A stretch of DNA of 61,180 bases from Nitrospinota bacterium (GCA_046758845.1 JBHIBA010000001.1:1-61180), one strand, 5' to 3'; counted from the stretch's first letter, positions 1 to 43,964 are shown. Notes: a model not told the origin generated them from the sequence alone. Made by a program: numbers and translations.

Positions 1-2417
1 GGCGCCTGCTTCATGATCTCCCACAAATAATGGGGACTGAGGGGGAGGTCGCGAATCCGGACGCCGAAGGGCCTCAGGGCATCCTCGACGGCATTGGCTA
101 GCGCGGGCGGCGGACCGACGGTTCCCGTCTCGCCGGACCCCTTGAAGCCCCCGGGTGTGAAGGGGTTGGGGGTGACGGTGTTGTCGAGGATCAGGGGGGG
201 CACCTCCATCGTCGTGGGGACGAAATAGTCCTTGAAATTCCCGTTCAGGAGCTGGCCCTCTTCGTTGTAGATCAGCTCTTCATAGAGAGCGCCTCCGAGC
301 CCGTGGAGCATAGCCCCCCGGTGTTGGCCCTCTACGATGGCGGGGTTCAGCATGACCCCGCAGTCATGGACGGAGACATATCTCAGGATCTTGACCTCCA
401 TCGTCTCACGGTCCACCTCCACCACGGCGACAATGGCGTCATAAGGGACGCTGGAGAACATCGCCACCCTTCCTTCCCCCACGGTTTCGAAGCTCACATT
501 GGGATCGCGATAGTGGTAAGTAATATCCAGCCCCGGGTCCATCCCCTCGGGGAGGCGCCAGATGGCCAGATAGGCCGTGTGGGCGATCTCGCGCAGGCTC
601 ACCCGCCGCGCGGGGTCCGATGCGCAGAAGGCGAATCCCTCCGCCAGGCTGATCTCGGAGTCGGGGGCGTCCAGGATGGCCGCGGCGATCTTGACCGCCT
701 TCTCCCGCAGCTTGCGCGCACCCATGATGGCGGCGGAGGCGCCCACGATGGCGAATCGGCTCGAGTAAGAGCCGGAACCGTATGGGCAACGGAGGGTGTC
801 CCCTTCCACGACGTGGACATCGGCGAAGTCGATGCCCAGCTCCTGCGAGACGAGCTGAGAGATGGCCGTGGCGTGCCCCTGTCCCTCGTCGTTGCCCCCA
901 GTGAAGACGTAGAGGGGTCCCGCCGGGTCCATGCGCATGCTGACGCTGTAGTAGCCCGCGTTGTATGACCCCTTCCGGGCCGAGCTGGAAGGCTCGATGA
1001 CCAGCGCCACTCCGATTCCCAGGTAGGTTCCCTCCTTGCGAAGCTCCTCCTGCCTTTTTCGGAACTGCTCATAGTCGGCCAACTTCAGGGCCTTCTTGAG
1101 GGCTTCGGCGTAGTTGCCGCTGTCGTAGCGGGTCCCCGTCACGGAGACGTAAGGGAAGTCCTCGGGCGGGACGAAGTTCTTCAGGCGAATCTCCGCCGGG
1201 TCCAGGTTCAGACGATGGGCGATGATGGACACGAGGCGTTCAATGGCGTAGGCCGCCTCGGACTTGCCGAATCCCCGGTGGGCCCCGAAGGGGGTCTTAT
1301 TGGTCACCACGCCGAAGAGCTCGCCTCGGTAGTTCGAGATCTTGTAGGCCCCCGGGACATACATGGCGCTGGTCACGATGGAGGCCAGGCCGCCCACCGG
1401 ATAGGCCGTGCCGACGTCGGCGATGATTCGGTCCGTGACCCCGAGAATCGTCCCGTCCTTCTTGACAGCGGCGGAGATGGAATGGACCTGCTCTCGGGCG
1501 TGGCTGGTGGCCACCATGTGCTCGCTGCGGGTCTCGATCCACCGGACGGGTCTGCCCGCCTTCATGGCGAGCACGGGAATGAGGGTCTCCTCCGGGTAAT
1601 ACCCCCATTTTTGTCCGAAGCCGCCCCCCACACGCCTGGAGATCACCCGGACCTTCAAGTGGGGAATGTCCAGGGTCTTTTGGAGGAGGGTGCTGATGAC
1701 GTGGGGGATCTGGGTGGAGTCCCAGACCTCGAGCAGGTCCGTGCCGGCGTCGTAACGGGCCATCACCACTCGCGTCTCGATGGGGGTCGAGGTGAAGCGG
1801 GAGCTGTAGATCTTCTCTTCAATGACGACGTCGGCCTCCTGAAAGGCCCGCTCCACGTCTCCGCCGGACACCCGGAAACGAAGCATGAGATTGTCCCCCC
1901 ACTCGTCGTATAGGAGGGGGCTCCCTGGCTCCAGGGCCGCCTCGGCATCGAGGACGGGGGGCAAGGGTTCGAACTCCGCTTCGATGAGGTCCAGGGCATC
2001 CTCCGCCACGTACTTGTCCGCAGCCACCACGGCGGCCACCGGCTCTCCGGAGAAGCGGACCCTGTCCTTCACCAAACAGTAGTGGTCGTGAAACTTGATG
2101 GAGGGGTTCCCCCCCTGAAAGGGGTCGCGGCTCTGGAACGGGAAAGGGGCGAGCGGCATGACGTAGGCGGGGAGGTCTTTCCCCGTCATCCCGATTATCA
2201 CCCCGGGCAGCTCCAGGGCTTTGCTCAGGTCTACCCTCTTGAGCCTGGCGTGGGCGTAAGGGCTGCGGAAGATCCCCGCGTGCAGCATTCCCGGAAGGTG
2301 GATGTCCCCCGTATACTCCACCTCGCCCACGAGGATGTCCCGGTCCTCCTTCCTCCGGACGGCTGTCCTCCGGACGGCTGTGCCGACGCTGCTCTTTGCC
2401 TCGCTCGGACCTTTCAT
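1..2417 (-). CDS. xanthine dehydrogenase / CoxL-family molybdopterin-binding large subunit, 3'-partial (runs off window start)
   Basis: Absent from the ORF track because there is no stop in the window. Own minus-strand translation from ATG 2417..2415 (AGGAGG 9 nt upstream) reads MKGPSEAKSS...DRDILVGEVEYTGDIHLPGMLHAGIFRSPYAHARLKRVD. In the parts I translated (2417..~2000 and ~1440..1) it is open, ending ...NAVEDALRPFGVRIRDLPLSPHYLWEIMKQA at base 1. Follows coxM/coxS/coxG-like genes. Active-site loop reads GAHRGFGKSEA (XDH-like RGFG). Confidence 0.85.
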   Translation of the reverse strand, partial: MKGPSEAKSSVGTAVRRTAVRRKEDRDILVGEVEYTGDIHLPGMLHAGIFRSPYAHARLKRVDLSKALELPGVIIGMTGKDLPAYVMPLAPFPFQSRDPFQGGNPSIKFHDHYCLVKDRVRFSGEPVAAVVAADKYVAEDALDLIEAEFEPLPPVLDAEAALEPGSPLLYDEWGDNLMLRFRVSGGDVERAFQEADVVIEEKIYSSRFTSTPIETRVVMARYDAGTDLLEVWDSTQIPHVISTLLQKTLDIPHLKVRVISRRVGGGFGQKWGYYPEETLIPVLAMKAGRPVRWIETRSEHMVATSHAREQVHSISAAVKKDGTILGVTDRIIADVGTAYPVGGLASIVTSAMYVPGAYKISNYRGELFGVVTNKTPFGAHRGFGKSEAAYAIERLVSIIAHRLNLDPAEIRLKNFVPPEDFPYVSVTGTRYDSGNYAEALKKALKLADYEQFRKRQEELRKEGTYLGIGVALVIEPSSSARKGSYNAGYYSVSMRMDPAGPLYVFTGGNDEGQGHATAISQLVSQELGIDFADVHVVEGDTLRCPYGSGSYSSRFAIVGASAAIMGARKLREKAVKIAAAILDAPDSEISLAEGFAFCASDPARRVSLREIAHTAYLAIWRLPEGMDPGLDITYHYRDPNVSFETVGEGRVAMFSSVPYDAIVAVVEVDRETMEVKILRYVSVHDCGVMLNPAIVEGQHRGAMLHGLGGALYEELIYNEEGQLLNGNFKDYFVPTTMEVPPLILDNTVTPNPFTPGGFKGSGETGTVGPPPALANAVEDALRPFGVRIRDLPLSPHYLWEIMKQA

Positions 2418-2455
2418 CGGATTCGACCTCCTTTCGGCGGCGCAGCCACCGGGGC

Positions 2456-2908
2456 TCAGGCTCCAGGATTGGCGATCCCGGCCCTTATGCCCTCGACAAA
2501 TCGGACGATGTTCTTTTTGGCCAAAGGCTCCAGCAGCCCTCCCGCCACGGAGGCCAGGGTTCCCCCGACGCGGGCCAGACCCCGCCACTTCACGCGCGTC
2601 TCTCCGTCCCCCGACTGGAGATGAAAGCCGGCCTCAACGTCGAAGGAGTTCCCCGTCATCGAGCCCTGGGCCATGAACTTTGCGGACTCAGGCCGGTTGG
2701 CCTCCGCGAGGGTGAGCCTCACGGTGGCTGTTCCCCGGATGAAGGAGATGCCCACCCGGAGCTTCAGTGTGGCGTTTCGCGGGTCCTTGACCTCGACGCT
2801 CTGAAGGTCGGGAAGGCGCCCGGAGACCTGGCCGAGGTCAGTCAGGTAGCCGAAGACGGCCTCCCTGTCCCGGGGGACTGTGAATTCTCCTTCCAGTTCG
2901 ATGGCCAT
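2456..2908 (-). CDS. CoxG-like SRPBCC-fold protein (CO dehydrogenase subunit G family)
   Basis: 150-aa ORF MAIELEGEFTVPRDREAVFGYLTDL..., typical CoxG/SRPBCC. Located between the small- and large-subunit genes. Confidence 0.8.
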   Translation of the reverse strand: MAIELEGEFTVPRDREAVFGYLTDLGQVSGRLPDLQSVEVKDPRNATLKLRVGISFIRGTATVRLTLAEANRPESAKFMAQGSMTGNSFDVEAGFHLQSGDGETRVKWRGLARVGGTLASVAGGLLEPLAKKNIVRFVEGIRAGIANPGA

Positions 2909-2948
2909 GCGCCCTCCAGAACTTGAGCGTCGCCGGTGAGCCCGCCGG

Positions 2949-3449
2949 CTAACCCTTCTTCGGCCGCATCGTCTCCGCCGCGGAGAGGATGGCCATGACG
3001 ATGTTGTGATATCCGGTGCAACGGCAGAGATTCCCCACCAATCCCCATTTCACCTCCTCCTGCGTGGGCGAAGGGTTCTTGGAGAGGAGGTGGTAGGCCG
3101 ACATGACCATTCCCGCCGTGCAGTAGCCGCATTGCAGGCCGTGATGCTCCCAGAAGGCTTCCTGGATCGGATGGAGCTTTCCATCCACGGCCAATCCCTC
3201 GATGGTGAGGACCTTGCGCCCGTCCGCCTGGACCGCGAACATGGTGCAGGACTTGGTGCTCACGTCATCCACGATGACCGTGCAGGCCCCGCAACTGGTC
3301 GTATCGCATCCGATTTGGGGACCCCTGAAGCCCAGCCTGTCCCGTAGGAAGTCGATCAGGAGCATCCGGGGCTCGACCTCCGCCTCGAAGACCTTCCCGT
3401 TCACGGTTACGCTGATCTTGACCCGGTCGCTTTCGGCTGTGTCCGTCAT
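2949..3449 (-). CDS. (2Fe-2S)-binding small subunit of molybdo-flavoprotein dehydrogenase (CoxS-like)
   Basis: Cluster motifs GCDTTSCGACTV and CGYCTAGM...CRCTGY. Start moved to Met9 (ATG 3449..3447), which forms an ATGA overlap with the coxM-like stop 3446..3448. Confidence 0.9.
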   Translation of the reverse strand: MTDTAESDRVKISVTVNGKVFEAEVEPRMLLIDFLRDRLGFRGPQIGCDTTSCGACTVIVDDVSTKSCTMFAVQADGRKVLTIEGLAVDGKLHPIQEAFWEHHGLQCGYCTAGMVMSAYHLLSKNPSPTQEEVKWGLVGNLCRCTGYHNIVMAILSAAETMRPKKG

Positions 3450-4330
3450 CCTTGGGTCTCCTCCCCTCGGCACCGCCGAAGGGCCAAATTCAAGGCGCGC
3501 TTGACCAGCACCTGGATCATTTCCCGCTTGTAAGTCGCAGGTCCCCGGACGTCCGAGACGGGCTCGGCGGCCTTGGCGGCCTCGGCGGCTGCGGCGAGGA
3601 TTGCCTCCTCAGAGGGTTTCTCGCCCCCCAGGATCTTCTCGGCCTCTACCGGCTGCAGGGGGATCAGGCCGGCGCCCGCGAGGCCGAGACCCACTTCCCG
3701 GCAGACCCCGTCTTCACCCAGGACGACCTGGGCGGCCGCGCTGACCACGCAATAATCCCCGGCGCGCCGCTTGAGGGACAAGTAGGCCCCTCCCGCCTTC
3801 CCTTCGACGCCTGGAATGCGAACCTCGGTCAGGACGTTCCCACCCTCCAGGACAGTCGTGAATGCGTCGAGGAAAAAGTCCTTGCAGGGAACCGTGGCAT
3901 TCCCGCCAGGACCCTGGTAGCCGATCTCCGCCTTGAGGGCGAGGCAGACGGGACCCCAGTCGCCCGAAGGGTCCGCCTCTGCCAGGGCCCCCCCGAGGGT
4001 GCCCCAGTTGCGAACCTGGACGTCCCCAATCACGCGGGCGGCCTCTCGCATGAGCGGGAATCGTTCCTGGACCAGAGCAGAGGTCTCGATTTCCACGTGG
4101 CGGGTCAGAGGCCCGAGGACGAGACCCCCGCCATTTTCCTTGATGTAACTGAGGCCCGGAAGCCGGTTGATGTCGATGAGGGAGGCCGGACTGGCAAGGC
4201 GGAGCTTCATCAGGGGTATGAGGCTTATCCCCCCGGCAAGCACCCTCGCCTCATCGCCAAGCGCGGCCAGAAGCTCCACGGCCTCGTCAACCGATTCAGC
4301 CCGCAAGTACTTGAAGCGTCTTGGATACAT
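3446..4330 (-). CDS. FAD-binding medium subunit of molybdo-flavoprotein dehydrogenase (CoxM-like)
   Basis: 294-aa ORF with an FAD-binding PCMH-type N-terminus (LAGGISLIPLMKLRLA) and a flavoprotein C-terminal domain. First gene of the M-S-G-L series. Confidence 0.9.
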   Translation of the reverse strand: MYPRRFKYLRAESVDEAVELLAALGDEARVLAGGISLIPLMKLRLASPASLIDINRLPGLSYIKENGGGLVLGPLTRHVEIETSALVQERFPLMREAARVIGDVQVRNWGTLGGALAEADPSGDWGPVCLALKAEIGYQGPGGNATVPCKDFFLDAFTTVLEGGNVLTEVRIPGVEGKAGGAYLSLKRRAGDYCVVSAAAQVVLGEDGVCREVGLGLAGAGLIPLQPVEAEKILGGEKPSEEAILAAAAEAAKAAEPVSDVRGPATYKREMIQVLVKRALNLALRRCRGEETQG

Positions 4331-8215: not shown

Positions 8216-8803
8216 TTATTGCCGTTTTTTGAGAGTCTCCAGGATCGCTTCGGTCTCGTCGACGCCATGGAATTTCTGTCTATCGACAATGTAAGTGGGC
8301 GTCCCATCGACGCCCAGGCTTATCCCCTGCTCTCTCAAACCGTCCAGCCCAGCGGCGTAGGTTTCGCCCTCCAGGGCCTCTCTCAGCGCCTGTCCATCCA
8401 AGCCAATCTTCTCGCCTAAGGAGATCAAGACCTCAGGGTCCGCGATATTCTTGTCTTCGTGGAACCGGGCACTGTAGACGGCATTCCGATAGGCCTCCAT
8501 GCGGCCTTGGTCGCGGGCAAACAGGGTCGCCTGGTGCGCACGCCGGGTGCGGCACTTGTTCTGTGGGAAAATCAGCGTCATGCCGTATTTCCCGGCCAGA
8601 ACTCTGTGCTTCGCAAGCCGCTGTTCCGCTTCTTCAGGGGTTGACTCCAGGAAGGGCACTCCTTCGGGCCGGCCCTCCCAAGGAATCCATCGCACCTTGA
8701 TTTCAGCCTCTTTTTCAATCTTCGCCATCCCGCCGAGGGCGATGTAACAAAAAGGTCAGGTGTAATCGGCGAACAGCAAGATTTCGCTTTGGCCAGAGGT
8801 CAT
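8216..8803 (-). CDS. FrnE/DsbA-family thiol oxidoreductase with in-frame TGA (candidate selenocysteine, U-P-F-C motif)
   Basis: The ORF track gives only 8216..8728. The same frame upstream reads ATG(8803..8801) TSGQSEILLFADYT-TGA(8758..8756)-PFCYIALGG-MAKIEKE.... The TGA sits at the first Cys of the DsbA CxxC motif. GGGAGAG lies 7 nt upstream of the new ATG. Confidence 0.7.
8726..8744 (-). promoter_or_regulatory. candidate SECIS-like hairpin downstream of UGA 8758..8756
   Basis: mRNA CAUCGCCCUCGGCGGGAUG starts exactly 11 nt 3' of the UGA. It is an imperfect GC-rich stem (CAUC/GAUG plus CC/GG or CGCC/GGCG alternatives). Less canonical than the one at 42357..42375. Confidence 0.35.
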
Positions 8804-8975
8804 TCGCAATCTCTCCCGCAGTTTCGTTTGTATCTTGAAACCCGCCCGACCCCGCAACGGATCTGTGACCGGGTCTCCGTGAGATCGGCTGTTCAGCAGA
8901 CGAAGCTCTTTTTACTCGCCGTCAAATTACCAAAATTCACCCAATGTGCCAATTGCTTACCCGGAGTTTTCCGCT

Positions 8976-9008
8976 AAAGAAAAAGGGCTGCGGCAATTCC
9001 CGCAACCC
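8976..9008 (-). terminator. intrinsic terminator downstream of tRNA-Ala
   Basis: On the minus strand: GGGUUGCGG-GAAUUG-CCGCAGCCC (9-bp stem with one G.U) followed by UUUUUCUUU. Confidence 0.6.
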
Positions 9009-9019
9009 CTTGAACTTCT

Positions 9020-9095
9020 TGGTGGAGCTGAGGGGGGTCGAACCCCTGACCTCATGACTGCCAGTCATGCGCTCTCCCAGCTGAGCTACAGCCCC
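9020..9095 (-). tRNA. tRNA-Ala (anticodon GGC), CCA encoded
   Basis: Reverse complement is GGGGCTGTAGCTCAGCTGGGAGAGCGCATGACTGGCAGTCATGAGGTCAGGGGTTCGACCCCCCTCAGCTCCACCA. Full cloverleaf, G3:U70 Ala identity pair, anticodon loop CTGGCAG. Confidence 0.95.
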
Positions 9096-23630: not shown

Positions 23631-24632
23631 CTACGGCAGCAGGCGGTAATCCACAATCTCTTCGATGCGCTTGACCTTCTGGTCGATCACGCCGATGTCG
23701 TGCAGGTATGCCAGCTGGGACATGGTGGCCTTCTCGTTCAGCCGTCCGTCGAGGCTGATAAAGGGATAGCCCACCTGGCTCGCCATCTGCTTGTTGACCT
23801 TGGTCCACTTGTCGATGACCTCGAAGAGCCGCTCCTTGTTCTTGCCCTCCCCGAGGGCCGCGACATGGTCCTTGGCCCCGTCGAGGTAGGCCCGCATGAA
23901 GCGGCGCCCGACATCGGTGCGCTTTGTGATGAAGTCCTGGTTTGAGAACAGGATGGCCTGCTGCGTTCCCTCCGGGGCCACGTCGGTGCTGGGCGCCAGG
24001 ACCGTCCCGACGCCCTGCTTCTCGGCAATCGTCTTGAAGGGCTCGATCATGTAGGCGACGTCCACGGCCTTGGACCGAAGGGCCGCCGGCATCTGGTTGT
24101 AGCCCACCTTTTTCAGGTGGATGTCCGCCCGGGTCAGTCCGCCGGCCCGCAGCGCGCGGGCCAGGATGTAGTCGTCGATGCTCCCTTTCAGCGTGCTCAT
24201 GCCGAAGGTGCGGCCCTTGAAGTTGGCGTACTTCCGCAGGGCGCCGCTCTCGTAGAGGTCCTTCCGGACCATCCAGTACACGTACACCCAGCCGTCCTTC
24301 TGCTGGGCCATGTCGGACACGATGCGCAGCGGCGCGCCCTGCTGGATGGCGTTCACCAGCGCCGCGCCGAAGCCCAGCGTGCAGATGTCGAGGTTGCCCT
24401 GGATCACCGCGTTGACACGAATGTCCGTCGGCCAGACGACCTTCAACTGGGGGTCGATGCCTTCGCGCTTGAAGTATCCGTTCTCAATGGCCAGGAACAT
24501 CGGCGAGACCGACACGACCGGGATGTAGCAGACCTTGACCGTGTCGGCCGCACGGGCCCGCCCCTGCAAGGCGCCGAGAAGTGAGAAAAGGAAAAAGACG
24601 AGACTAAAACCGGAGAGAAGCTTTCTGGCCAT
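23631..24632 (-). CDS. ABC transporter periplasmic substrate-binding protein (NMT1/SsuA-like)
   Basis: 333 aa with a signal peptide (MARKLLSGFSLVFFLFSLLGALQGRARA). Type-2 PBP fold pattern. Confidence 0.85.
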   Translation of the reverse strand: MARKLLSGFSLVFFLFSLLGALQGRARAADTVKVCYIPVVSVSPMFLAIENGYFKREGIDPQLKVVWPTDIRVNAVIQGNLDICTLGFGAALVNAIQQGAPLRIVSDMAQQKDGWVYVYWMVRKDLYESGALRKYANFKGRTFGMSTLKGSIDDYILARALRAGGLTRADIHLKKVGYNQMPAALRSKAVDVAYMIEPFKTIAEKQGVGTVLAPSTDVAPEGTQQAILFSNQDFITKRTDVGRRFMRAYLDGAKDHVAALGEGKNKERLFEVIDKWTKVNKQMASQVGYPFISLDGRLNEKATMSQLAYLHDIGVIDQKVKRIEEIVDYRLLP

Positions 24633-24950: not shown

Positions 24951-26216
24951 TTAGCCCTCCGCAGGCAGCTGCGGAAAATGCAGAGGGATTTCCGCCAACC
25001 GTCGCGGCCCATCCTCGCCCACGACCACGGTGTCCCCCAGCATGATCCCCACGTCCTTCCGCCAGTGCGGGTCGTTGATGTCGATGTTGAGGGCGAGGAC
25101 CATGCCGGCTCGCAGCGTGAACGCCTCCAAGCCCCGGCCCGAGAGGACGGGCTCCTCCGGCTTGTACACCACGGTGGGGAACTCGGGCGAGCCCAGGCCG
25201 TGGCCATGGAAGCCGCATTCGATGTAGTCCATCCCCGCCTCCTGCACCGGCCGACGGAACGCCTCCCAGACCTCTCGCAGGGGCGCGCCGGGCCGTAGCC
25301 GCTCCACGCCGCTCTGGAGGCTCTCCACGGCGACGGCATGGACGCGGGCCAGCTCCCCCGGCGGGGGCCCCACGAAAGCAGAGAACTCCACCCCCGTGAG
25401 GTAGCCTCCGCAGCTGGCGTGGAACTCCGTGAGGACGAGATCTCCCGCTCGCAGCGGCCGCGTCGTGGGGGCCAGGGGCTGAGGCCGCGCATGGAGGAGG
25501 TACCGCTCGCAGGTGTCCACGGGGTCCGCGCTGAAAAAGCAAAAGATGTAGGGCTCGCCCCCCGCCGCGATGTGCGCCCGCACCATCTCGGCGTACACCT
25601 CGCACTCCCGCACCCCCGGACGCGCGGCCGCCAGCAGGGCCTCCACCATGGCCGCCGCCAGCCGCCCCGACCGCTCCAACAGGGCGATCTCCTCGGGGCT
25701 CTTAATGAGGCGCAGTTCGTCCAGCACGTCGGTGGCGTCCACCAACTCGGCGCCGGGGAGCGCCTCTCGCAGCGCCTCGTACTCCTGATACGCGATGATG
25801 TGCTGCTGGAGGGCGCTGCCGTACCCCACGATGCCGAGGCGGCCGCGGGCTTGGCCCAGGTCCCGCACGACGCCTGCTAGGGCGTCGATGCCCGTGAGGG
25901 GGCGGACCTCCGCCACCCAGTCTTGGCTGAGGAGGTAGGGCGGGTAGGGGTGATACATGTGGATGTTCTCGACGAAGGCCACGGGGTCGCCCCGGCGGGG
26001 GAAGCAGCAGATGCCTTGCTTGGCCGCGATGTGTGTCAGGTATCGAAGGTTCGCCGTGCCCAAGGCGTAGAACCGGTCCGTGCCCCACACCAGCAGGCAG
26101 TCAAGGCCCCTGCGCCCCATGGCCTCCCGCAGCCCCGCCCAGCGGCGGTCCCGCTCGGCCAGCGAGAGTTGGGGCAGGTGCGCCGTGAGCTTTTCGCGAA
26201 CCGCCGCCCTAGCCAC
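24951..26216 (-). CDS. creatinase-like M24-fold hydrolase (metal ligands largely substituted)
   Basis: Creatinase/prolidase N-domain plus pita-bread domain. By-eye alignment puts TEFHA, GVEFS, ALNID and MLGDT where M24 peptidases have D, D, E, E. Confidence 0.8.
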   Translation of the reverse strand: MARAAVREKLTAHLPQLSLAERDRRWAGLREAMGRRGLDCLLVWGTDRFYALGTANLRYLTHIAAKQGICCFPRRGDPVAFVENIHMYHPYPPYLLSQDWVAEVRPLTGIDALAGVVRDLGQARGRLGIVGYGSALQQHIIAYQEYEALREALPGAELVDATDVLDELRLIKSPEEIALLERSGRLAAAMVEALLAAARPGVRECEVYAEMVRAHIAAGGEPYIFCFFSADPVDTCERYLLHARPQPLAPTTRPLRAGDLVLTEFHASCGGYLTGVEFSAFVGPPPGELARVHAVAVESLQSGVERLRPGAPLREVWEAFRRPVQEAGMDYIECGFHGHGLGSPEFPTVVYKPEEPVLSGRGLEAFTLRAGMVLALNIDINDPHWRKDVGIMLGDTVVVGEDGPRRLAEIPLHFPQLPAEG

Positions 26217-27948
26217 TGCGCGGCTCCAGCAGACGGACGATCTGCTTCGTCGTCGGGTCGATGTCCAGCCGGTACACCTCCCGGGCCGCCTGGTAGCTCA
26301 CGATCCCGTCCAGCACGTCCTCCCGCACGGCCTCCGGATCCCGCTTCGCGGGGTTGCCGACGCCCGCGCCGCCCCCGGATTGCTTCAGGATAACGTCGCC
26401 CGGCTGCAAGTCGAAGTACCGGTGGGCCCTGGCCAGGGTCCGCTGGTCCCCCCTGAGGATCCAGCACCTGTTCGGGGGGCAGTCCCGACCGCCCGCGACC
26501 CCTTGCGGCACCACGACCTCGGCGTCGGCGTTGCCGGTGGACATCTTGGCCTCCCCGCCGTCGTTGCGCATGGACCAGTGGACCCCGCAGGCCCCTCGCC
26601 ATCGGCCGGCAGCCGGGCTGTCCTCGGCGAACTCGTAGCGGAGCATCCACCAGGGGACCCGCACCTCCATTTCCTCCACGTTGGCGCGGGCCACCTCGCC
26701 CATCGTGGTGATGGAGGCCGCGCCCTCGAACCCGTCGTAGCCCCACACCGCCCCCGCACCCCCGTCCGGCTCGAACATGCTCTGGACATACCGCTCCCCC
26801 GTGCGGGGATCGGGACCGAAGATGTAATGCCGGTAGTGCCGCGCCCAGGGGGCGATGGCGCGCTGGGGCAGGGGCTGGGACATGGCAATGAGGACCGACT
26901 CCATGACCTGGGAGCCGACGGTGATCGGGGCTGCGCCCACCGTGCAGGGCCACTGGGCGTTGGTCACGCGTCCTTCCGGGTTGACCACGGTGATGGGCGC
27001 CATGCTGCCCTCGTTATGGTAGTTGGCGATGGCGGGGTCCAGGAACAGGAACACGGATGCCACCGCCTGGCTGTACACGGCCGGGTAGGTGCTGTTCACG
27101 AATCCCTTCCGCTGGGCGTCGCTCCGGGAGAAGTCCAAGGTCAGCTCGTCTCCGGCAACCGTCATGTCCAGCCGTACCCACACCGGTTCGTCCAGCACCG
27201 TCCCGTCGTCGTCGCAACCCGCCTCGGCCGAGTAGGTCCCGTCGGGGATCTGCCGGATCTGCTCGCGGACGAACCGCTCGGTCCGCTGCCGCATTTCCCC
27301 GATACAGCCTTCGACCACGTCGAGGCCGTACTTGCGCATGAGGCCCTGGAGGCGGCGCTCGCAGATGGTGGTGGCCGCGATCATGCCCAGGTTGTCCACC
27401 CGCACCCCCTCCGGCCACCGCACGTTGTTGTAGATCAGGCGGTGCAGGTCCTCGTTCTCGCGTCCGCGGTCCAGGAACTTCACCGGGGGGATGTTGAGCC
27501 CCTCCGCCACGATGTCGTAGGCGTTGGGGAAGTAGCCCCCCGGGTAGGCCCCGCCCGTGTCGTACTGGTGGGCGCGGGCCAGGGTGAAGAAGCAGAGGCG
27601 GCCGTCGTGGAAGATGGGCCGGATGAAGGCCCAGTCCGGCAGGTGGTTGCCATAGCCGTGGTAGGGGTCGTTACAAAGGAAGACATCCCCCGGGAAAATC
27701 CGGTCCCCGAAGTGCTCCAGGATGTACTCGATGGTGTACTTGCCCCCGAGGAACTGTGAGGGCAGGCCCGTGGGGACGGCAATGGTGCGGCCCTCGCGGT
27801 CCCAGATGCCCACGGAGATATCGCCCAGGTGGGCGATGAGGATGCTCTGGGCCGTCCGAACGATGACGTGTTTCATCTCCCGGCAGTAGCTCTGCATGGC
27901 GTGCCAAACGGTGGAGAGCGTGATGGGATCGATGGCTTGCTCAGGCAT
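26209..27948 (-). CDS. hyuB: hydantoinase B / oxoprolinase family protein
   Basis: 579 aa. MPEQAIDPITLSTVWHAMQSYCREMKHVIVRTAQS... is a typical HyuB start. Overlaps its neighbours by a few nt. Confidence 0.9.
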   Translation of the reverse strand: MPEQAIDPITLSTVWHAMQSYCREMKHVIVRTAQSILIAHLGDISVGIWDREGRTIAVPTGLPSQFLGGKYTIEYILEHFGDRIFPGDVFLCNDPYHGYGNHLPDWAFIRPIFHDGRLCFFTLARAHQYDTGGAYPGGYFPNAYDIVAEGLNIPPVKFLDRGRENEDLHRLIYNNVRWPEGVRVDNLGMIAATTICERRLQGLMRKYGLDVVEGCIGEMRQRTERFVREQIRQIPDGTYSAEAGCDDDGTVLDEPVWVRLDMTVAGDELTLDFSRSDAQRKGFVNSTYPAVYSQAVASVFLFLDPAIANYHNEGSMAPITVVNPEGRVTNAQWPCTVGAAPITVGSQVMESVLIAMSQPLPQRAIAPWARHYRHYIFGPDPRTGERYVQSMFEPDGGAGAVWGYDGFEGAASITTMGEVARANVEEMEVRVPWWMLRYEFAEDSPAAGRWRGACGVHWSMRNDGGEAKMSTGNADAEVVVPQGVAGGRDCPPNRCWILRGDQRTLARAHRYFDLQPGDVILKQSGGGAGVGNPAKRDPEAVREDVLDGIVSYQAAREVYRLDIDPTTKQIVRLLEPRSG

Positions 27949-27951
27949 TCC

Positions 27952-30048
27952 TCAACCTCCCAGGCCCAGGACGTAGTTGTGGACCCCATCCACGTGCGCG
28001 ACGAACCCGGGCGGGATCACGACGGTGGTGGTCTGCTCCTCGATGATGGCCGGCCCCTTGAGCCGGTGCCCCTCCTGGATGGCCGGGCCGTCGTATACGG
28101 GAACGTCCTGCAGAGCGCCCGCGAAGAAGGCGCGCCGGCGCCGCTTTTCCACGAGGGGCCCCGGGCGCGGGGGCGCGCCCCCCCCGGCCGCCAGGTGAAC
28201 CTCGGCGCGGCGGGGGGCCGTAGCGTGGAGCTTGAAGTTGATGAAGTCCACGGCGCGAAAGCTCATGGCGAAGGTGTACCGGGCCTCGTGCTGGCGGTGA
28301 AAGGCCTCTACGATGGCCGGGATGTCTCCGGGCTCCAGGGGCCGCGACGGCAGATCCACCTCGATCTCGTGGAACTGACGTGAGTAGCGCATGTCTGCGG
28401 ACCGGCCGAGGTGGACCTCGGTGGGCGGAATGCCGACGGCGCGGAAGGCCGCCAAGGCCTCCGCCTCCATGGCGGCGAAGGTGTCGTTCACCTTTCCGAT
28501 GTCCAGGGTCGCGGCCGGGGAGACCAGAGTGTGGGTGTAATCCCGGCCGATGTCCATGAGGAGCATCCCCAAGGCGCTGTACAGCGCGGCCGCCTGGGGC
28601 ACGATGACCGTGCGGGTCCCCAGGACATCCGCCAGGAACCCGGCGTGCACGGGGCCGGCCCCGCCCCCCGCCACCAGGGCGAAGTCCCGGACGTCGTAGC
28701 CCCGACGCGTGGAGATCTCGGTGATCTGGCTCGCCATGAACTCGTTGACAGCTTGGAAGACCGCCTGGGCGGCCGCGGTGGCATCCATCCCGAGGCGCGC
28801 CCCCAGGCGCTCCAGGGCAGAACGGGCCAGCCCGGCATCCAAGGCGCTCTCGCCCCCCAGGAAATAGTCCGCCGGAATGTAGCCGAGCACGAGGGCGGCG
28901 TCGGTGACGGTCGGGTCCCGCCCGCCGCGGCCGTAACAAGCCGGGCCGGGATCGGCCCCCGCGCTCTGCGGGCCCACCCGGAGCAGGCCCAGGGAGTCCA
29001 CCCAGGCGATGCTCCCGCCGCCAGCCCCGACGGTGTGGATGTCCCGCATCCTGATGGCGAGGCGTTCCTCGCCCACCCACATCTCCGTGGTGGTCTCCAC
29101 CTGGCCGTCCCGCACGAGACAGACGTCGAAGCTGGTCCCGCCCATATCGATGGAGATCAGGTCCCGATGGCCCACCAGGTCCCCGATGAATGCCCCCCCC
29201 GTTGGCGCCGCCGCCGGCCCGGAGCCGACCAGGTACACCGCCTTGCGGGCGACCTCGCCCACGGATTGGACGTGGCCGTCCGCCTGGACCAGGAGGAGGC
29301 GCCCCTTCAGGCCCTGGGCATCCAGCCGCGACTGGAGGTCGTTCAGATAGGTCGAGACGACGGGGCCGACGAAGGCGCTGGCCACCGTGGTGCTGAAGCG
29401 CTCGAACTCGCCCCAGACGGGAAGGATCTCGTGGGAGGTCACCACGTAGGCCTGCGGGAAGGCCTCCCGCAGGATCTCGGCCGCCCGGGCCTCATGGCTG
29501 CCATTGGCGTAGGCGTGCAAGAAGCAGACGGCGATGGCGGTTACGCCCGCGGCCTTCAATGTGTCGGCCGCCTGGCGGACGTCCAATTCGTCCAGCGACA
29601 CGACCGCCTGGCCCTCGTGGGTCATTCGCGCGGTCACCGGAAGGCGGTGTCGGCGGTGGACGAGGGGCCGGTAGGGCGGGAAAAAGATGTCGTACATGGA
29701 CCGCCCGCCCACGTTCTTGAACCCGCGGCGCAGGGCCAGGATGTCCCGGAAGCCCTTGGTCGTCAGCATCCCCACCGGGGCCCCGCGTCGCTCCACCAGG
29801 GCGTTGGTGGCCAGGGTCGTCCCGTGAATGAGGAGCTCGAGCCGGCCGATGAAATCGTCCAGCGGCCGGTCATGGGCGCGGGCGGCCTTGGCGAGGACCT
29901 GCATGACCCCCTCGGCGGGGGACCGCGGCGTGGTGGGGGCCTTGAAGGCGCGGACCTCGCCGCCGCCATCCAGGACCAGGCAGTCCGTGAAGGTACCGCC
30001 CACATCGATGCTCACGATCATCGGGTACTCCCCTCCATGTGGGTTCAC
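27952..30048 (-). CDS. hyuA: hydantoinase A / oxoprolinase family protein
   Basis: 698 aa. IVSIDVGGTFTDCLVLDGGGEV..., ISIDMGGTSFDVCLV are the ASKHA-fold motifs of HyuA. Confidence 0.9.
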   Translation of the reverse strand: MNPHGGEYPMIVSIDVGGTFTDCLVLDGGGEVRAFKAPTTPRSPAEGVMQVLAKAARAHDRPLDDFIGRLELLIHGTTLATNALVERRGAPVGMLTTKGFRDILALRRGFKNVGGRSMYDIFFPPYRPLVHRRHRLPVTARMTHEGQAVVSLDELDVRQAADTLKAAGVTAIAVCFLHAYANGSHEARAAEILREAFPQAYVVTSHEILPVWGEFERFSTTVASAFVGPVVSTYLNDLQSRLDAQGLKGRLLLVQADGHVQSVGEVARKAVYLVGSGPAAAPTGGAFIGDLVGHRDLISIDMGGTSFDVCLVRDGQVETTTEMWVGEERLAIRMRDIHTVGAGGGSIAWVDSLGLLRVGPQSAGADPGPACYGRGGRDPTVTDAALVLGYIPADYFLGGESALDAGLARSALERLGARLGMDATAAAQAVFQAVNEFMASQITEISTRRGYDVRDFALVAGGGAGPVHAGFLADVLGTRTVIVPQAAALYSALGMLLMDIGRDYTHTLVSPAATLDIGKVNDTFAAMEAEALAAFRAVGIPPTEVHLGRSADMRYSRQFHEIEVDLPSRPLEPGDIPAIVEAFHRQHEARYTFAMSFRAVDFINFKLHATAPRRAEVHLAAGGGAPPRPGPLVEKRRRRAFFAGALQDVPVYDGPAIQEGHRLKGPAIIEEQTTTVVIPPGFVAHVDGVHNYVLGLGG

Positions 30049-31231: not shown

Positions 31232-32725
31232 TCAGGCGTGAACCAAAGGGAGGGCGGAATACTCGCGGGATACGGCCAGGAGGTGAGGGCGCAGTTCAGC
31301 GGCGTCGGCCAGTGCAGCAGGAAGATTCTCACGAAGGCGCCCTGTGGCCCGTTCGACCACCTTCGATATCTCCATTCGGTCCGGGTGGACTGAGCGGCCG
31401 TTTCGAACCACCTCTTCGCCATCAACGAAGACCCGGTCGACCGACTCGCCGTCCTCGGCAAATACCAGAGCGTTCACCGGGTCAATCCAGGGCTCGAAGT
31501 TAAGGCTCCGGTTGAGCACAACGAGGTCCGCGCGCTTACCTGCCTCGATGCTTCCCAGACGGTCCTCCATCAGGAGCACGGCGGCGCCGCCCCCGGTGGC
31601 CATCCGAAGGGATTCGAGAGGGGTCACCCCCTGCTCCGGATCCCCCTCGCGAATGTTGTGAACAAGCGCCGCGAGATGCGCCTGGTGGAAAACGCTGCCC
31701 TTGTCGCTGCTGTTTGCCCCGTCGATTCCGAGGCCCACGGGCACACCGGCGTCCAGGTATTTCCGCACGGGAGCGACCCCGCTCCCCAGCTTGAGGTTGG
31801 AAGCCGGATTGTGCGCCACCCTGCAGCCGCTTTCGGCCAAAAGTTGAATGTCCGATTCGCTGACCCAGATCGAATGGGCGAAGGACGTCCGCGGGGAAAG
31901 ATAACCGATGTCGCGAAGGTGCTCGGGGATGGTGGAGCCGTACATCTTGCGTCCCTGGTGGACCTGCGTCCGGACTTCGAGAAGGTGGGTGTGAAGCGGA
32001 ACACCGCGTGCCTCCGACAAGTCGGCACACCCCCTGAGAAGACGGCCAGTACACCCCCGGGGCGATGAGGGGCCGATGCCTCCCGTGATTCGGGAAGAAC
32101 CGGCGGCCTCGGCCTTGTCCAGGACCGCCCCCGCGCGCTCAAGAATCATGTCCGTGGCGGGAGCCTGCTCCGCCAAGAGTAGCGTCCGGACGTGATCCGG
32201 TAGGCTCGGAAGGTCGATGGGGATTTGCTCACGCAACGGCCTGTCGCTGATCTGGGGGCAGAGCACGGCCCTCAACCCCGATGCGCGGAACGCGTCGAGG
32301 GCTGCCTCCAGATTGGCCTCCTCGACGGTCCCGCCCGCTCTCATGTGATTGAGAGCGGAGGTCACGCCGTTCTCCAGCATTTCGATGCAGGTGAGCGTCA
32401 CGGTCGCCGTGAGCTCCTCCTTTGACAGGTTGAGGAATCTCATGGCGGAAACCTTGTATTGAAGCCAGGGTTCCAGAGGCAACCCGTAGTTGAGACTGCG
32501 AATGGCCATCTCTTCGAAGTGGCAGTGACAGTTGACCGTTCCGGGGAGGACGAGTTGTCCCCCAAGCTCCAAAACCGGACCATCGAAGTCAGCCGGGACC
32601 TCCAGGCCCGGGCCGAGAGCCTCGATGACCCCGCTTCGGACCAAGAGATCCCCGTCTTGGAGGATTTCACCGTCTGCGTTGAGGGTAAGAATGACGCCGT
32701 TTTTCAGAAGCAGGTCGCCGGGCAT
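31232..32725 (-). CDS. amidohydrolase-superfamily deaminase/chlorohydrolase-like enzyme
   Basis: MPGDLLLKNGVILTLNADGEILQDGDLLVRSGVIEALG..., VNCHCHFEE metal motif, HTHLLE, ...GIDGANSSD. Start set at Met89 of the 585-aa ORF (GGGAGAG RBS). Confidence 0.85.
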   Translation of the reverse strand: MPGDLLLKNGVILTLNADGEILQDGDLLVRSGVIEALGPGLEVPADFDGPVLELGGQLVLPGTVNCHCHFEEMAIRSLNYGLPLEPWLQYKVSAMRFLNLSKEELTATVTLTCIEMLENGVTSALNHMRAGGTVEEANLEAALDAFRASGLRAVLCPQISDRPLREQIPIDLPSLPDHVRTLLLAEQAPATDMILERAGAVLDKAEAAGSSRITGGIGPSSPRGCTGRLLRGCADLSEARGVPLHTHLLEVRTQVHQGRKMYGSTIPEHLRDIGYLSPRTSFAHSIWVSESDIQLLAESGCRVAHNPASNLKLGSGVAPVRKYLDAGVPVGLGIDGANSSDKGSVFHQAHLAALVHNIREGDPEQGVTPLESLRMATGGGAAVLLMEDRLGSIEAGKRADLVVLNRSLNFEPWIDPVNALVFAEDGESVDRVFVDGEEVVRNGRSVHPDRMEISKVVERATGRLRENLPAALADAAELRPHLLAVSREYSALPLVHA

Positions 32726-33191
32726 AGGTTGCTCTCCCAACAGGATATACCGGCCTGGCCGGACTCTGCGCGAAGGATCCGGTAGTCTTTGCCCGCTCAC
32801 AATCATGTCTGCGATTAGCCTGAGGATACCGGATAACGACCACGGCCTCAACTCAAGAAGGCGATAGAGTTGAGAAGAGGAAGATCCGCTAAATTTCCGC
32901 TGCAAGAAACACTGCAATATAAACGATCGTGCTCCTTTTAAAACGACTTGGATTCGCTGAAGCCAGCCTTCACCCCCGCACCAATCCATTTTCCCCTACG
33001 AGGCGTCAGAGGACCCGACTTTATTTCTCCTCTCCTGGCGTTGGATTCGGTTGACCTGTCCCCGTTCTTAAACCCAGGCCAGAATGTTCTCATTCAACCT
33101 GGGCCTCGCTAAGGGGGGCAGGCCAACTCGGTGTCAGGTGAAATGACTGATATAAATAATCGGAACTATAGGGGCGGGGGGGAGACGATAT

Positions 33192-33665
33192 ATGTCCAAA
33201 CCCGTTAGAGTTCGGAAGGTTGTTTGCCCTGCTTGTGTAACTTTGTTTCCTCAACCCTCCTGCGAGCCAATAACCTGCCCGATTTGCGATGCCCGCTGGT
33301 GGTCGGAAGCAGCTATTCAATCTCAAAAGCCCATCCATGAGATCGTGAAAAACGTTGAAATATTCAATTGGCAGGACCATGGCACATGTCACTACTCCGT
33401 TTATGTCGTTCTGTTGAAGCAGGTTCCAAAAATCAAGGGAAAGGCGTATTACATTGGGATGACCGGGGTCTCTCCCGAAGAGAGGTTTCTCAACCACAAA
33501 CGGGGTATCAAGGCCAGCAGGTGGGTTAAGCGATTCGGCGTGGCTCTGCTCAGAAGAGATTATATCCATCTTAATCCGATGGAGGAAGAACAGGCTCTAC
33601 GAATCGAAGAGGAGCTGGCGGAAAAACTTTTAAACTTGGGGTTTGAGGTCTTTGGGGGTCATTGA
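33192..33665 (+). CDS. Zn-ribbon / GIY-YIG-like nuclease-domain protein
   Basis: N-terminus CPAC...CPIC. Then YSVYVVLL-(13 aa)-YYIGMTGVSPEERFLNHKRG...ALRIEEELAEKLLNLG, resembling the GIY...YIG...R...H...E...N motifs. AT-richer than the flanks. GGGGGGAG RBS. Confidence 0.55.
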   Translation: MSKPVRVRKVVCPACVTLFPQPSCEPITCPICDARWWSEAAIQSQKPIHEIVKNVEIFNWQDHGTCHYSVYVVLLKQVPKIKGKAYYIGMTGVSPEERFLNHKRGIKASRWVKRFGVALLRRDYIHLNPMEEEQALRIEEELAEKLLNLGFEVFGGH

Positions 33666-33862
33666 TGCATTGTCAGCTTGGTGCCAGGGGCGACATGCAT
33701 CTACGAGCGCTCGGTTGTTGTGGTAGGGCGGTTGCCTTAGCGTCGTATCCAAAGGCGTACTTCATGCCCTTCTTTTGCGGTTGGATGAGCAGTTGGGGGG
33801 AAAGATGACTGAGGGCCCCTCCAGGAGTGGCATTCTCCGCGAATCGCCGATCTACAACTCGT

Positions 33863-33903
33863 TGGGGCTTTTCCCCGTGTATGTTCGACTCCCTCCGCTA
33901 CCG
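33863..33903 (+). other. degenerate tRNA-Leu-like variable-arm/T-arm fragment
   Basis: GGGGCTTTTCCCCGTGTATGTTCGACTCCCTCC aligns by eye at ~26/33 positions with GGGGCCTAGCCCCGTGTGGGTTCGAATCCCACC of tRNA-Leu. The T-stem is no longer complementary. Confidence 0.35.
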
Positions 33904-34381
33904 GGCACTATCTCCGGTCATGGGGCTTTGACAAGGGCAGCCAATTTTGGCGTAAAATTCGGTCCGTAAAGGAGGGGGACGCGTTGTGAAGTGAGACTCC
34001 GTGAACTTGCGATGGCTCAAATGGCTCCCCATCATTCTGCCTGCCTTGTTCCCGCAGCTTTGGGGCTCGTGAGGCAGAGATATCTGGAGTCCTTCTTTCC
34101 CCCTTGGATGGAGCAGTTGCGATTCGGGCCACGGTGAAGCCGGGAAAATGAGCCTTGATAAGAATTGATCTTGTCGTTCTCGACCTAGGCGACCACCCGG
34201 GGAAAAGGTATGAGGTTCACGTGAGGAGGGTGGAAACCCGGGTATTTCAGCACCGTCGAGAAGGGAAGGCGCCCTACTGGTTTGGCTCCATGGCAAAGGG
34301 CTTCCGGCACCCTCGGATCGTTTGGGGCTGAACTGGGCGAATCATCGGAATTTGGGTCGTTATGGGTTGAAAGGAGGGCGC

Positions 34382-35884
34382 GTGAGGAAGGAATTAAGAC
34401 GAATCATCACCGCATCGATGGCCCTCGGTTCATCGGCCCGCTTCATTGTTTCTCTTTTTGCATTTTCTCTGTTCTTTTTGCTTCCGACCTTCCTCCATGC
34501 TCACGGGATTCAGGAGGTTCGGTACTCGCCGCCCATTCCGGGATGGCTTTTTCTGATCGGCGGAGGACTCGCCGTCGCTCTCTCCTTTGTGTTAATCCAC
34601 CTGCGCTCGGCGCATCATAAGCCGGTATCCGGCTACGCCAGACTGCACATCCGGTTCGGACCGGGACTTCGGTTTCTGGGGCATTTACTCTCTGCAATGG
34701 GTCTGCTTTTGGGGGGCCTGGTCCTGGCGGGGAGGTTTCTGGGGGACCCAAGGTCTGAAGACACCTTGCCCTCCGTCCTGGTCTGGTCCGGCTGGTGGAT
34801 AGGGCTTGCGTGGCTGACACTGATGATTGGCAACGCCTGGCCCGCCCTCGATCCATGGAACACCCTGCGCCGCATCTACGGCCGCTGGTTTGCCCGCCCT
34901 CTCTCCCTGGGACTTCGGTTTCCCGCCTTCCTTTCCGCGTGGCCGGCCGTCCTTCTCTTCACCGGATTCATCTGGTTTGAGTTGGGATGGTTCCAGGCCA
35001 GCGAAGCCGAGGGCGTCGTCACGGTATTTCTGATTTTCACCGGATGGCTTTGGGTGGGGATGGCCGTTTTCAAGCCCGAAGACTGGTGGGACAACGCGAA
35101 TCCGTTCGCGCGCTATTTTCGGGTCCTGGGAAGGTTCGGGCCTCTCGAGAAACGGGGGATACACATAGAGGCCAGGATCCCGGGAACTGCGCTGCACGAC
35201 ACCAGACTGGGGAACTCCTCGGAAGCGATTTTTGTGATCGTCGTTCTGTTCGCAGTCACGTTTGACGGCTTCGTCGCAACGCCTGAATGGTGGGTATTAC
35301 TTCGGCGGATGATGTTGAAGAGTTTCGAGATTCTTCCTAAAGGCATAGCCTTTCACGCGTCATTCCTGTTCGCCATCTTGGTGGGCGCGGCAACCTTTGG
35401 ATCCGCATATTTCTTGGTTTGCCGGATCATGAGTCATTTTTCAGATGGGTTGCGAAAGACCAGAGAAATCGCACGCGATTTCGCCATGACCCTCGTCCCG
35501 ATTGCAGCCGCCTACCACATCGCCCATTTCATTCCCGCCGTTCCGAGCCGCGTAACCGGACTCGTCCAAGCGATGGCGGATCCTCTCAGTCTCGGTTGGC
35601 ACCTGTTCGGGTGGCATTCTTTCAAATGGGACGTCAAGTGGACTCCGGAAACCGCCGGGATCATTTGGGTGGCACAAACGGGGCTCATCGTTTTGGGACA
35701 TATCGTATCCATCTGGTCGGCTCACCGCAGGGCGTTAATTCTTATTGGGGATAAATCAAAGGCATCCAAGGTCGAACTGCCCGTGGCAATCCTGATGATA
35801 TGTTATACCGTCGTCAGCCTGTGGATTATCTCCAGGCCTGTCTTGAACGAACCCTTGGTCCCGATTCCGGGCCTGACAAGGTAG
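34382..35884 (+). CDS. polytopic membrane protein, unknown function (signal-peptide-like N-terminus)
   Basis: ~500 aa with >=10 hydrophobic segments. GTG 34382 lies 4 nt after AGGAGG. N-terminus ...FAFSLFFLLPTFLHA/HGIQEV. No family recognised. Confidence 0.65.
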   Translation: MRKELRRIITASMALGSSARFIVSLFAFSLFFLLPTFLHAHGIQEVRYSPPIPGWLFLIGGGLAVALSFVLIHLRSAHHKPVSGYARLHIRFGPGLRFLGHLLSAMGLLLGGLVLAGRFLGDPRSEDTLPSVLVWSGWWIGLAWLTLMIGNAWPALDPWNTLRRIYGRWFARPLSLGLRFPAFLSAWPAVLLFTGFIWFELGWFQASEAEGVVTVFLIFTGWLWVGMAVFKPEDWWDNANPFARYFRVLGRFGPLEKRGIHIEARIPGTALHDTRLGNSSEAIFVIVVLFAVTFDGFVATPEWWVLLRRMMLKSFEILPKGIAFHASFLFAILVGAATFGSAYFLVCRIMSHFSDGLRKTREIARDFAMTLVPIAAAYHIAHFIPAVPSRVTGLVQAMADPLSLGWHLFGWHSFKWDVKWTPETAGIIWVAQTGLIVLGHIVSIWSAHRRALILIGDKSKASKVELPVAILMICYTVVSLWIISRPVLNEPLVPIPGLTR

Positions 35885-36092
35885 GGAGTGACCTTCGTCC
35901 GCCTGCTAGATTGGAGACGGCTGGGGCGCACCGTTTACGTAATCTATGACCCGATCGAGGCGATGGCCCTGGCGGACCCCAAGCTGGGCCGCGAGGACTA
36001 CGACAAATTTAGGAAGGGGGCTTCTTCCGCCTTCGTCTGCGGGTTAGTTTCTCAGTCCACCCACGGTCTCGGCAATGCTCAGTTCTCTCTCA

Positions 36093-36692: not shown

Positions 36693-37012
36693 GGTTGCCT
36701 CCTATCCGTGTCTGGGCGGCATGATCCAAAGAGCCACCCGCTGGTTTTAGGGCGCCTTGGCTATATAGTGCCGGCCGAATAATAATTCAAGCGTCCGGAG
36801 GGCACTGATAAAAGAATATGCCGGGTTTGTCGGCGACAGCAGCGCGTTGCTTCGTCAGCCGCAGATCATCGCATTGGAAAACTGGCGGGCTTTCCGGGGG
36901 TAATCCTACTCATAGATGATAACGAGTTCGGGCGCCGCTCTTGGAGCGACCGCGAATGCAGGCCCGGGATGTTCTCAATGCAGCATGCGGAGGGGCGCAG
37001 CATGCCGCGCCT

Positions 37013-43251: not shown

Positions 43252-43312
43252 CACTTACTAATCGGAGCATAAAAGATTTGGCATAAGGATGGTTTGATGC
43301 TATGTTTTTCGC

Positions 43313-43841: not shown

Positions 43842-43964
43842 GGCCCCCGGCCTTTCCTTTTCAATGGAACGAGAACAAAGCCCTTATTTGAATGAGAAGA
43901 AGGGTATCTCTTAAACGAGAGATGTGTCACACGGCATCGTACCTAGAATGCCTGCGAGCAAACA

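Follow-up and report, generated by a model that had tools for sequence, protein, structure and literature searches.

A gene for a candidate selenocysteine-containing FrnE/DsbA-like oxidoreductase, truncated by annotation, in a Nitrospinota bacterium

How should a gene be read when a standard stop codon occupies the position of the catalytic cysteine of the encoded enzyme? This question is raised by a gene for a FrnE/DsbA-like protein located on the minus strand of a 61,180-nucleotide stretch of DNA from a Nitrospinota bacterium (GCA_046758845.1, JBHIBA010000001.1:1-61180), which was analyzed in its entirety and is hereafter called the window. Direct translation yields a frame of 195 codons that starts with an ATG at 8803..8801, ends with a TAA at 8218..8216 and contains one in-frame TGA at 8758..8756 (gene 1; Table 1). 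In the reading order of the minus strand, MTSGQSEILLFADYT is followed by the TGA, then by PFCYIALGG and a methionine at 8728, after which there is no interruption up to the TAA. The evidence described below suggests, with a probability that we put at roughly 0.88, that 8803..8216 is an intact, mis-annotated gene for a selenocysteine (Sec, U)-containing FrnE/DsbA-like oxidoreductase. When the TGA is read as Sec, the protein starts with MTSGQSEILLFADYTU, the first strand begins at residue 8, and the TGA, within the motif FADYT-U-PFC, becomes residue U16 of the active site U16-P-F-C19. A preliminary description of this locus had already placed the upstream ATG, a GGGAGAG run with a 7-nt spacer in front of it, the TGA and the called open reading frame (ORF) at these positions, and both the sequence and its translation agree.

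None of this is apparent from the available annotation. Mechanical ORF calling produces only 8216..8728, a product of 170 aa, and the corresponding NCBI record, MFQ5911559.1 ('MAG: DsbA family protein [Nitrospinota bacterium]', 175 aa; MAG, metagenome-assembled genome), starts at an ATC at 8743, downstream of the TGA. Comparison with the Pfam DSBA profile shows that the called ORF lacks the first strand as well as the CxxC redox motif and thus begins in the middle of the fold, as proposed previously, whereas the 195-residue protein spans positions 2-190 of the 191 in the profile. The 170-aa ORF and the 175-aa record are truncation artefacts that result from reading UGA as a stop. The same error is shared by MFQ5911559.1 and all 19 of the closest database proteins, and functional or structural inference from these records would mislead because they include neither the first strand nor any part of the active site.

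The full-length protein, with U read as C, belongs to the DSBA family (PF01323; E = 1.4e-30; 107 bits against a gathering cut-off of 25.6). The closest solved structure is that of FrnE from Deinococcus radiodurans (5CNW; E = 9e-13), to which residues 8-186 align with residues 14-210 of FrnE, the first Cys of the FrnE CPWC motif falling opposite the TGA. The FrnE-type active-site motif CP(W/F)C is therefore matched as U-P-F-C, with Sec in place of the first Cys. All full-length database homologues, which are at most 37% identical to the gene 1 protein, have Cys opposite the TGA and read [SF]DY.CP[FW]CY (alignment A1), or CP[FWY]C when only the active site of the full-length relatives is considered; in a tblastn search against the window DNA, each of eight Cys homologues gave a single high-scoring segment pair that continues through the TGA without a break and has C aligned to the stop. 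The assignment of the TGA to the nucleophilic Cys position in the preliminary description is thus borne out.

If the TGA is translated, it should be retained in related genes along with the codons that precede it. We fetched the DNA of 10 close loci (57-74% identity; four genome assemblies provided seven of them, and metagenome contigs the other three) and extended the TGA data with three more distant loci (34-38% identity), for a total of 13 related loci. All 13 keep a TGA at the same column; TAA, TAG or a sense codon is never found there, in line with the earlier argument that a chance nonsense mutation at exactly this codon is unlikely. The motif around the TGA is [FY][AS]DYT-TGA-P[FY]C[YC] in all 10 close loci, and the distant relatives at 34% and 38% identity read IFSDYV-TGA-PFCW and KYSDYT-TGA-PYCY, respectively. 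Each of the close loci also has an ATG 15 codons upstream of the TGA, with no further stop and no frameshift in between. The D-Y-T codons vary synonymously among these loci (GAT/GAC, TAC/TAT, ACC/ACG/ACT), and pairwise differences at the three codon positions amount to 164/173/318 in 12 upstream codons and 284/218/525 downstream, so that third positions dominate on both sides. Independent decay of the upstream codons, which would be expected of a true pseudogene, is not seen in the 10 closest loci.

These observations bear directly on the simplest alternative, namely, that the TGA is a real stop, such that the gene is a pseudogene with a decaying upstream remnant or only the truncated protein of 170-175 aa is expressed. 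This is how every annotation pipeline reads the locus, and a single substitution suffices to convert TGC or TGT into TGA. However, the TGA persists in all related loci, paralogues included, even where identity falls to 34%, and protein-level conservation covers the 15 upstream codons as well as the nine that separate the TGA from Met 8728, with synonymous changes and without stops or frameshifts. The upstream ATG and its Shine-Dalgarno-like run are conserved, whereas the internal methionine, considered previously as an alternative start, is not: loci L001 and L007 lack it and read GGAEV at this place. Furthermore, a product initiated at Met 8728 would contain neither the first beta-strand nor any of the redox motif. 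Because the TGA at the catalytic position and the coding sequence on both sides of it are kept across divergence, a nonsense mutation, an assembly error and a decaying remnant are effectively excluded, and we consider it very unlikely that translation stops at this codon. It is extremely unlikely that an error of sequencing or assembly turned a TGC or TGT into this TGA: MAG assemblies do contain errors, but the same TGA is present in independent NCBI, ENA and JGI assemblies, including long-read chromosomes, and a second gene in the window shows the same feature (see below).

The retention of the TGA extends across gene duplications. Three genomes each carry two paralogues, both with the TGA (L001 and L005 in OZ244653.1, L002 and L004 in CBDHDG01, L003 and L006 in CAYRGS01); therefore, the TGA survived duplication and long divergence. 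The MAG that includes the window probably has a second copy as well, namely, MFQ5912444.1 (P0004), a truncated protein with 67% identity, encoded on a 27-kb contig and carrying a nearby accession. Among 5.8 billion proteins, the 19 closest ones (54-99% identity) are all 120-180 aa long and all begin just past the TGA position. When 1.84 billion cluster representatives were scanned exhaustively with HMMER, no Cys-form close relative was detected; the scan did reveal many more-distant short relatives with the same starting point, among them the two at 34% and 38% identity whose TGA motifs are given above. Some other matches in this representative library (P0151, P0153, P0254 and others) are proteins of 550-1200 aa that contain three to five tandem stretches resembling the C-terminal half of the DSBA-like domain.

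Translation of the TGA in gene 1 does not reflect a change of the genetic code as a whole. TGA is the commonest ordinary stop codon in the window, terminating 26 of the 52 genes, so genome-wide reassignment of TGA is ruled out and recoding must be local.

Local recoding of UGA as Sec in bacteria depends on a stem-loop known as a SECIS (Sec insertion sequence) element, and a hairpin is indeed present downstream of the TGA in gene 1. The preliminary description placed it at 8744..8726, 11 nt past the UGA; the hairpin stands, but its span and distance have to be corrected to 8742..8722 and 13 nt, and it is imperfect and statistically not distinctive. Its lower stem of 5 bp is followed by a C.U mismatch and another 2 bp, which are topped by a GGCGG loop; the minimum free energy is -13.5 to -15.5 kcal/mol (z of about -1.2 to -1.5). 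All 10 orthologues have a hairpin with a G-rich apical loop 20-24 nt past the UGA, and in nine of them the stem comprises 6-8 contiguous bp: 8 bp with a GGG loop in subclade B (6 bp in L005), 7 bp in L002 and L009, and 7 bp with the register shifted by 2 nt in L001 and L007. Across the alignment, the hairpin register pairs 74% of the cells, compared to at most 64% in slid controls. The published model of the bacterial SECIS (bSECIS) calls for a loop of 3-9 nt, an upper stem of 4-16 bp, a G in the first two loop positions, a spacing of 16-37 nt and a minimum free energy of -7.5 kcal/mol or lower (PMC13188914). Applied to the shared hairpin, this model is passed by nine of the 10 orthologues; L003, which has the hairpin sequence of the window, passes only via a different, weak hairpin. 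Contiguous stem length discriminates better than passing or failing the bSECIS model. The hairpin of gene 1 appears compatible with a SECIS element and is conserved in position, which does not amount to independent proof.

The second gene that the preliminary description had singled out as having the same architecture, at 42166..42765 on the plus strand (gene 2), does so on inspection: it reads ...ITIAEFFDYR-TGA(42343..42345)-PFCKTLG..., with the FFDYR-TGA-PFCK motif at the position of a CxxC. The product matches the Pfam families DSBA (1.2e-21) and Thioredoxin_4 (5.6e-17); its closest solved structure is the ScsC-type periplasmic protein 3GYK (E = 7e-40, residues 5-172), with a complete catalytic domain, and every residue that is invariant among the 15 aligned homologues is kept. 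The hairpin following its TGA is canonical, passing all four published bSECIS constraints at -16.2 kcal/mol, and a qualifying stem of at least 8 bp, as found here, follows only 2.6% of the 1623 TGAs in the window. The gene has its own Shine-Dalgarno-like run, GGGGGGAG, and ATG. What counts against it is the lack of a signal peptide and of about 80 further N-terminal residues that all homologues have, with no upstream remnant in any frame; no relative exceeds 51% identity. Its product is absent among the database matches, and the gene may have been left without annotation or classed as a pseudogene. Judging from these sequence features, gene 2 probably encodes a selenoprotein, although the case is less secure than that for gene 1. 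About 500 bp downstream lies a transposase-like ORF (HTH_33/HTH_32; 43302..43895, plus strand, with an overlapping alternative frame at 43313..43891), which adjoins a gene for a trypsin-WD40 fusion protein (43965..45608).

A read-through scan found no further convincing candidates in the window or the related flanks. The genes for hydantoinase/oxoprolinase A and B (26209..30048, minus strand) lie in the same frame with a single TGA between them (…GLGG-TGA-GMPEQ…); there is no Cys/Sec context, and these are most likely two ordinary adjacent genes.

Several observations weigh against a Sec reading of gene 1. The hairpin in the window fails the strict contiguous-stem rule of the bSECIS model, the C.U mismatch interrupting it after 2 bp, although the loop, G, spacing and energy rules are satisfied; our implementation of that model passes 57% of 800 random TGAs in this GC-rich window and is hence discounted as evidence; and a stem equal to that of gene 1, with one mismatch allowed, follows 27% of the 1623 window TGAs. 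Covariation is not significant: applied to 11 sequences, RNAalifold together with a count of pairs reveals a single compensatory pair, a score that 148 of 500 shuffles also reach, in an element that overlaps conserved coding sequence and is represented by few distinct sequences. No Rfam family matches the hairpin at a permissive E-value within 150 nt around each TGA. As for the decoding machinery, SelA, SelB and SelD were not found among the 50 Pfam-annotated genes of the 61-kb window, ARAGORN detected no tRNA-Sec in the window or the 10 related loci, and roughly 150 kb of related flanks contain no selA, selB, selD or tRNA-Sec. The only tRNAs in the window are tRNA-Ala and tRNA-Leu, and a search of the whole window with Rfam at the gathering threshold yielded these two tRNAs and chance matches, but no SECIS or tRNA-Sec family. 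Indirect support for a Sec reading comes from the BSepDB study, in which three of the ten bacteria richest in selenoprotein genes, with 48-54 each, are MAGs that carry the label Nitrospinota, Nitrospinaceae or Nitrospinae and are assigned to the GTDB phylum UBA8248 (PMC13326102); that the MAG analyzed here belongs to UBA8248 is an assumption based on the common NCBI label.

Given a translated TGA, the inserted residue could in principle be something other than Sec: a near-cognate or suppressor tRNA might insert Cys, Trp or Gly without any involvement of selenium. The absence of Sec machinery from the window and related flanks and the imperfect, non-distinctive hairpin are compatible with such read-through, and the conserved TGA and upstream codons demonstrate translation rather than the identity of the residue. 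Nevertheless, we find this quite unlikely. TGA terminates half of the window genes, which would make efficient general read-through harmful; the TGA in gene 1 is located exactly at the Sec position of known UxxC selenoproteins of the same Pfam family; a Cys could be encoded by TGC or TGT, yet none of the 14 loci, the window included, uses either; and MAGs with the same label are extremely Sec-rich. Two UxxC genes within 61 kb agree with the large selenoproteomes reported for the Nitrospinota-labelled (GTDB UBA8248) MAGs; therefore, such genomes need Sec-aware annotation.

Table 1. Coordinates of the features of gene 1 and gene 2 in the window
Feature	Position	Strand	Basis
Full-length coding sequence of the FrnE/DsbA-like candidate selenoprotein (gene 1), 195 codons including one Sec-UGA, plus TAA	8216..8803	-	Translation; Pfam DSBA; FrnE 5CNW; Cys homologues across the TGA
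Shine-Dalgarno-like GGGAGAG, 7 nt upstream of the ATG	8811..8817	-	Sequence; GGAG-like run before the ATG in most orthologous loci
Predicted true start codon, ATG	8801..8803	-	ATG 15 codons before the TGA in 10/10 close orthologous loci
In-frame TGA, U16, position of the nucleophilic first Cys of CxxC	8756..8758	-	Cys opposite in full-length homologues; TGA kept in 13/13 loci
TGT codon, C19, predicted resolving Cys of U-P-F-C	8747..8749	-	All aligned relatives covering the region; synonymous TGT/TGC among orthologues
SECIS-like stem-loop, UCGCC-C-UC [GGCGG] GA-U-GGCGA	8722..8742	-	Best fold; begins 13 nt past the UGA, loop 21 nt past the UGA
C84 codon, K-C-R-T-R motif	8552..8554	-	Invariant column C59 of alignment A2 (15 close Sec-clade members)
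Gene 2, unlinked DsbA-fold protein with ScsC-like catalytic domain, 199 codons, UxxC	42166..42765	+	Translation; Pfam; PDB 3GYK; tblastn high-scoring segment pairs across the TGA
In-frame TGA of gene 2, first Cys of FFDYR-C-x-x-C	42343..42345	+	Alignment A4, invariant Cys in 15 homologues
SECIS-like hairpin of gene 2, GACCCUUG [GUC] CAAGGGUC	42357..42375	+	11 nt past the UGA, loop 19 nt past the UGA

From the bacterial Sec pathway and the biochemistry of FrnE, we infer the following scheme of Sec insertion and catalysis. SelB carrying Sec-tRNA(Sec) would bind the mRNA hairpin 8742..8722 and decode the UGA at 8758..8756 as Sec, giving rise to a thiol/selenol-disulfide oxidoreductase of 195 residues that is presumably cytoplasmic and belongs to the FrnE branch of the DsbA fold. 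The selenolate of U16, in place of the nucleophilic first Cys, would attack a substrate disulfide or an oxidised thiol to form a mixed selenenylsulfide; C19 would then resolve this mixed intermediate, leaving an intramolecular Se-S bond, and the Se-S site would be re-reduced by a cellular reductant. No signal peptide is seen in the gene 1 protein, judging from the start of the sequence, no dedicated signal-peptide predictor having been run. Residue 195 is the last, and a C-terminal CxxxxC tail is absent; the more distant homologues P0031-P0035 carry a C.VDGNC tail. The additional cysteine C84 (Table 1) is replaced by Ser in one fragmentary representative, P0147, by P or N in Cys-type homologues, and by Asn in the aligned FrnE. 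Speculatively, this residue might be a candidate for regeneration of the active site in place of the FrnE tail.

The gene neighborhood of gene 1 in the window is not common to the orthologous loci. A strong terminator-like hairpin (8982..9011, minus strand; 12 bp followed by a T-run), directly downstream of the tRNA-Ala gene (9020..9095, minus strand), stands between that gene and gene 1, and no sigma-70-type promoter consensus was found between this hairpin and gene 1. Recurrent neighbors at the other loci include an NMT1-type binding protein, PrpF, a UbiD-like protein and an FAD oxidoreductase, none of which suggests a dedicated redox partner. In six loci, which represent two paralogue groups (L002, L003, L004, L006, L008 and L010), the gene for the NMT1/THI5-type periplasmic binding protein is found upstream of the Sec gene at a distance of about 0.3-2.8 kb, in either orientation; the NMT1-like gene of the window is far off, at 23631..24632. 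Three loci, each from a different paralogue group, have genes for CoxSML-type molybdenum hydroxylases (xanthine/CO dehydrogenase family) at 4-7 kb downstream of the Sec gene (3..4330, minus strand, in the window; 17666..20284 in L001; 14678..18389 in L005), and CoxG is also present in the window; identity is only 28-46%, and the co-occurrence may be coincidental. Elsewhere in the window, the stretch at about 32000..36700 has a G+C content of 0.566, against about 0.62, and may be a foreign insert; it contains four ORFs without a Pfam match (33192..33665, 34322..35884, 35888..36106 and 36093..36692).

How does gene 1 compare with known systems? Escherichia coli DsbA, a periplasmic disulfide oxidase, resembles the gene 1 protein in its thioredoxin fold, which bears a helical insertion, and in the placement of its N-terminal CxxC where helix 1 starts; it differs in being exported, in being re-oxidised by DsbB and in having a CPHC motif with Cys. 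The similarity of the gene 1 protein to DsbA-related structures is marginal (E of about 1e-4). FrnE of D. radiodurans (DR_0659; 5CNW and related structures), a cytoplasmic disulfide reductase/isomerase of the DsbA family, is closer: both proteins lack a signal peptide and have an N-terminal CP[WF]C-type motif and a DsbA fold with a helical insertion. However, identity is only about 25-30%, and FrnE has Cys instead of Sec, is 252-260 aa long and possesses the CxxxxC tail, which regenerates the active site in Deinococcus (PMC8945050). This tail is found in many, but not all, members of the FrnE subfamily (cd03024).

Gene 2 finds its counterparts elsewhere. The ScsC-type proteins (3GYK, 4XVW, 6NEN) are 40-51% identical to it in the catalytic domain, with a conserved FFDYRCxxCK, but have a signal peptide and the ScsC_N trimerisation domain (PF18312), whereas gene 2 encodes no signal peptide and lacks most of ScsC_N. 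The DsbG-like selenoprotein (NF041057, Rcas_1661 family) also has UxxC; the gene 2 product belongs to the DsbA/Thioredoxin_4 domain and is not a member of that family by score (49.2 bits, below the cut-off of 190). No Sec-containing close relative of gene 2 was found.

The closest precedent for gene 1 is the 'DsbA-like protein' (COG2761, the FrnE-type COG; UxxC), one of the selenoprotein families of the Sargasso Sea selenoproteome described in 2005, with nine sequences (PMC1088965). A study of 2006 reported a DsbA-like selenoprotein from several sequenced bacteria (PMC1794560), and a 2026 review lists 'DsbA-like protein form 1, PF01323, UxxC' and points out that selenoprotein genes are routinely truncated or missed by annotation pipelines (PMC13188914). 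These reports, together with every public record of the clade, are in accord with the statement in the preliminary description that Sec forms of DsbA-like proteins had been predicted and are commonly mis-annotated. At the sequence level, gene 1 displays the features of the form 1 family, that is, the DSBA domain, the Cys/Sec pair and TGA-containing homologues. Compared by family description, rather than with exemplar sequences such as NIP15863.1, the window clade and form 1 share the Pfam domain, UxxC with Sec first, a stem-loop in the coding region past the UGA, Cys homologues and truncated annotation; the features specific to the window clade are the extra, nearly invariant Cys (K-C-R-T-R) and the presence of two paralogues per genome. 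The other visible Sec and Cys relatives are at most 38% identical to this clade, and none of its close relatives is a Cys form.

A more far-reaching proposal, which we offer tentatively and regard as rather unlikely, is that the window clade is a distinct, undescribed subfamily of short, tail-less FrnE-type proteins, apparently confined to Nitrospinota-labelled and unclassified MAGs, obligately Sec-containing, mostly duplicated, and using C84 in place of the CxxxxC tail, with gene 2 as a cytoplasmic Sec offshoot of periplasmic ScsC. Obligate use of Sec would follow from the lack of any Cys-form relative above 38% identity among the 1.84 billion representatives. Gene 1 leaves the current knowledge of Sec decoding and of DsbA-fold enzymes unchanged; it adds one well-supported lineage, with paralogues, to a DsbA-like selenoprotein family known since 2005, and its extra conserved Cys hints at what may be an alternative mechanism of regeneration.

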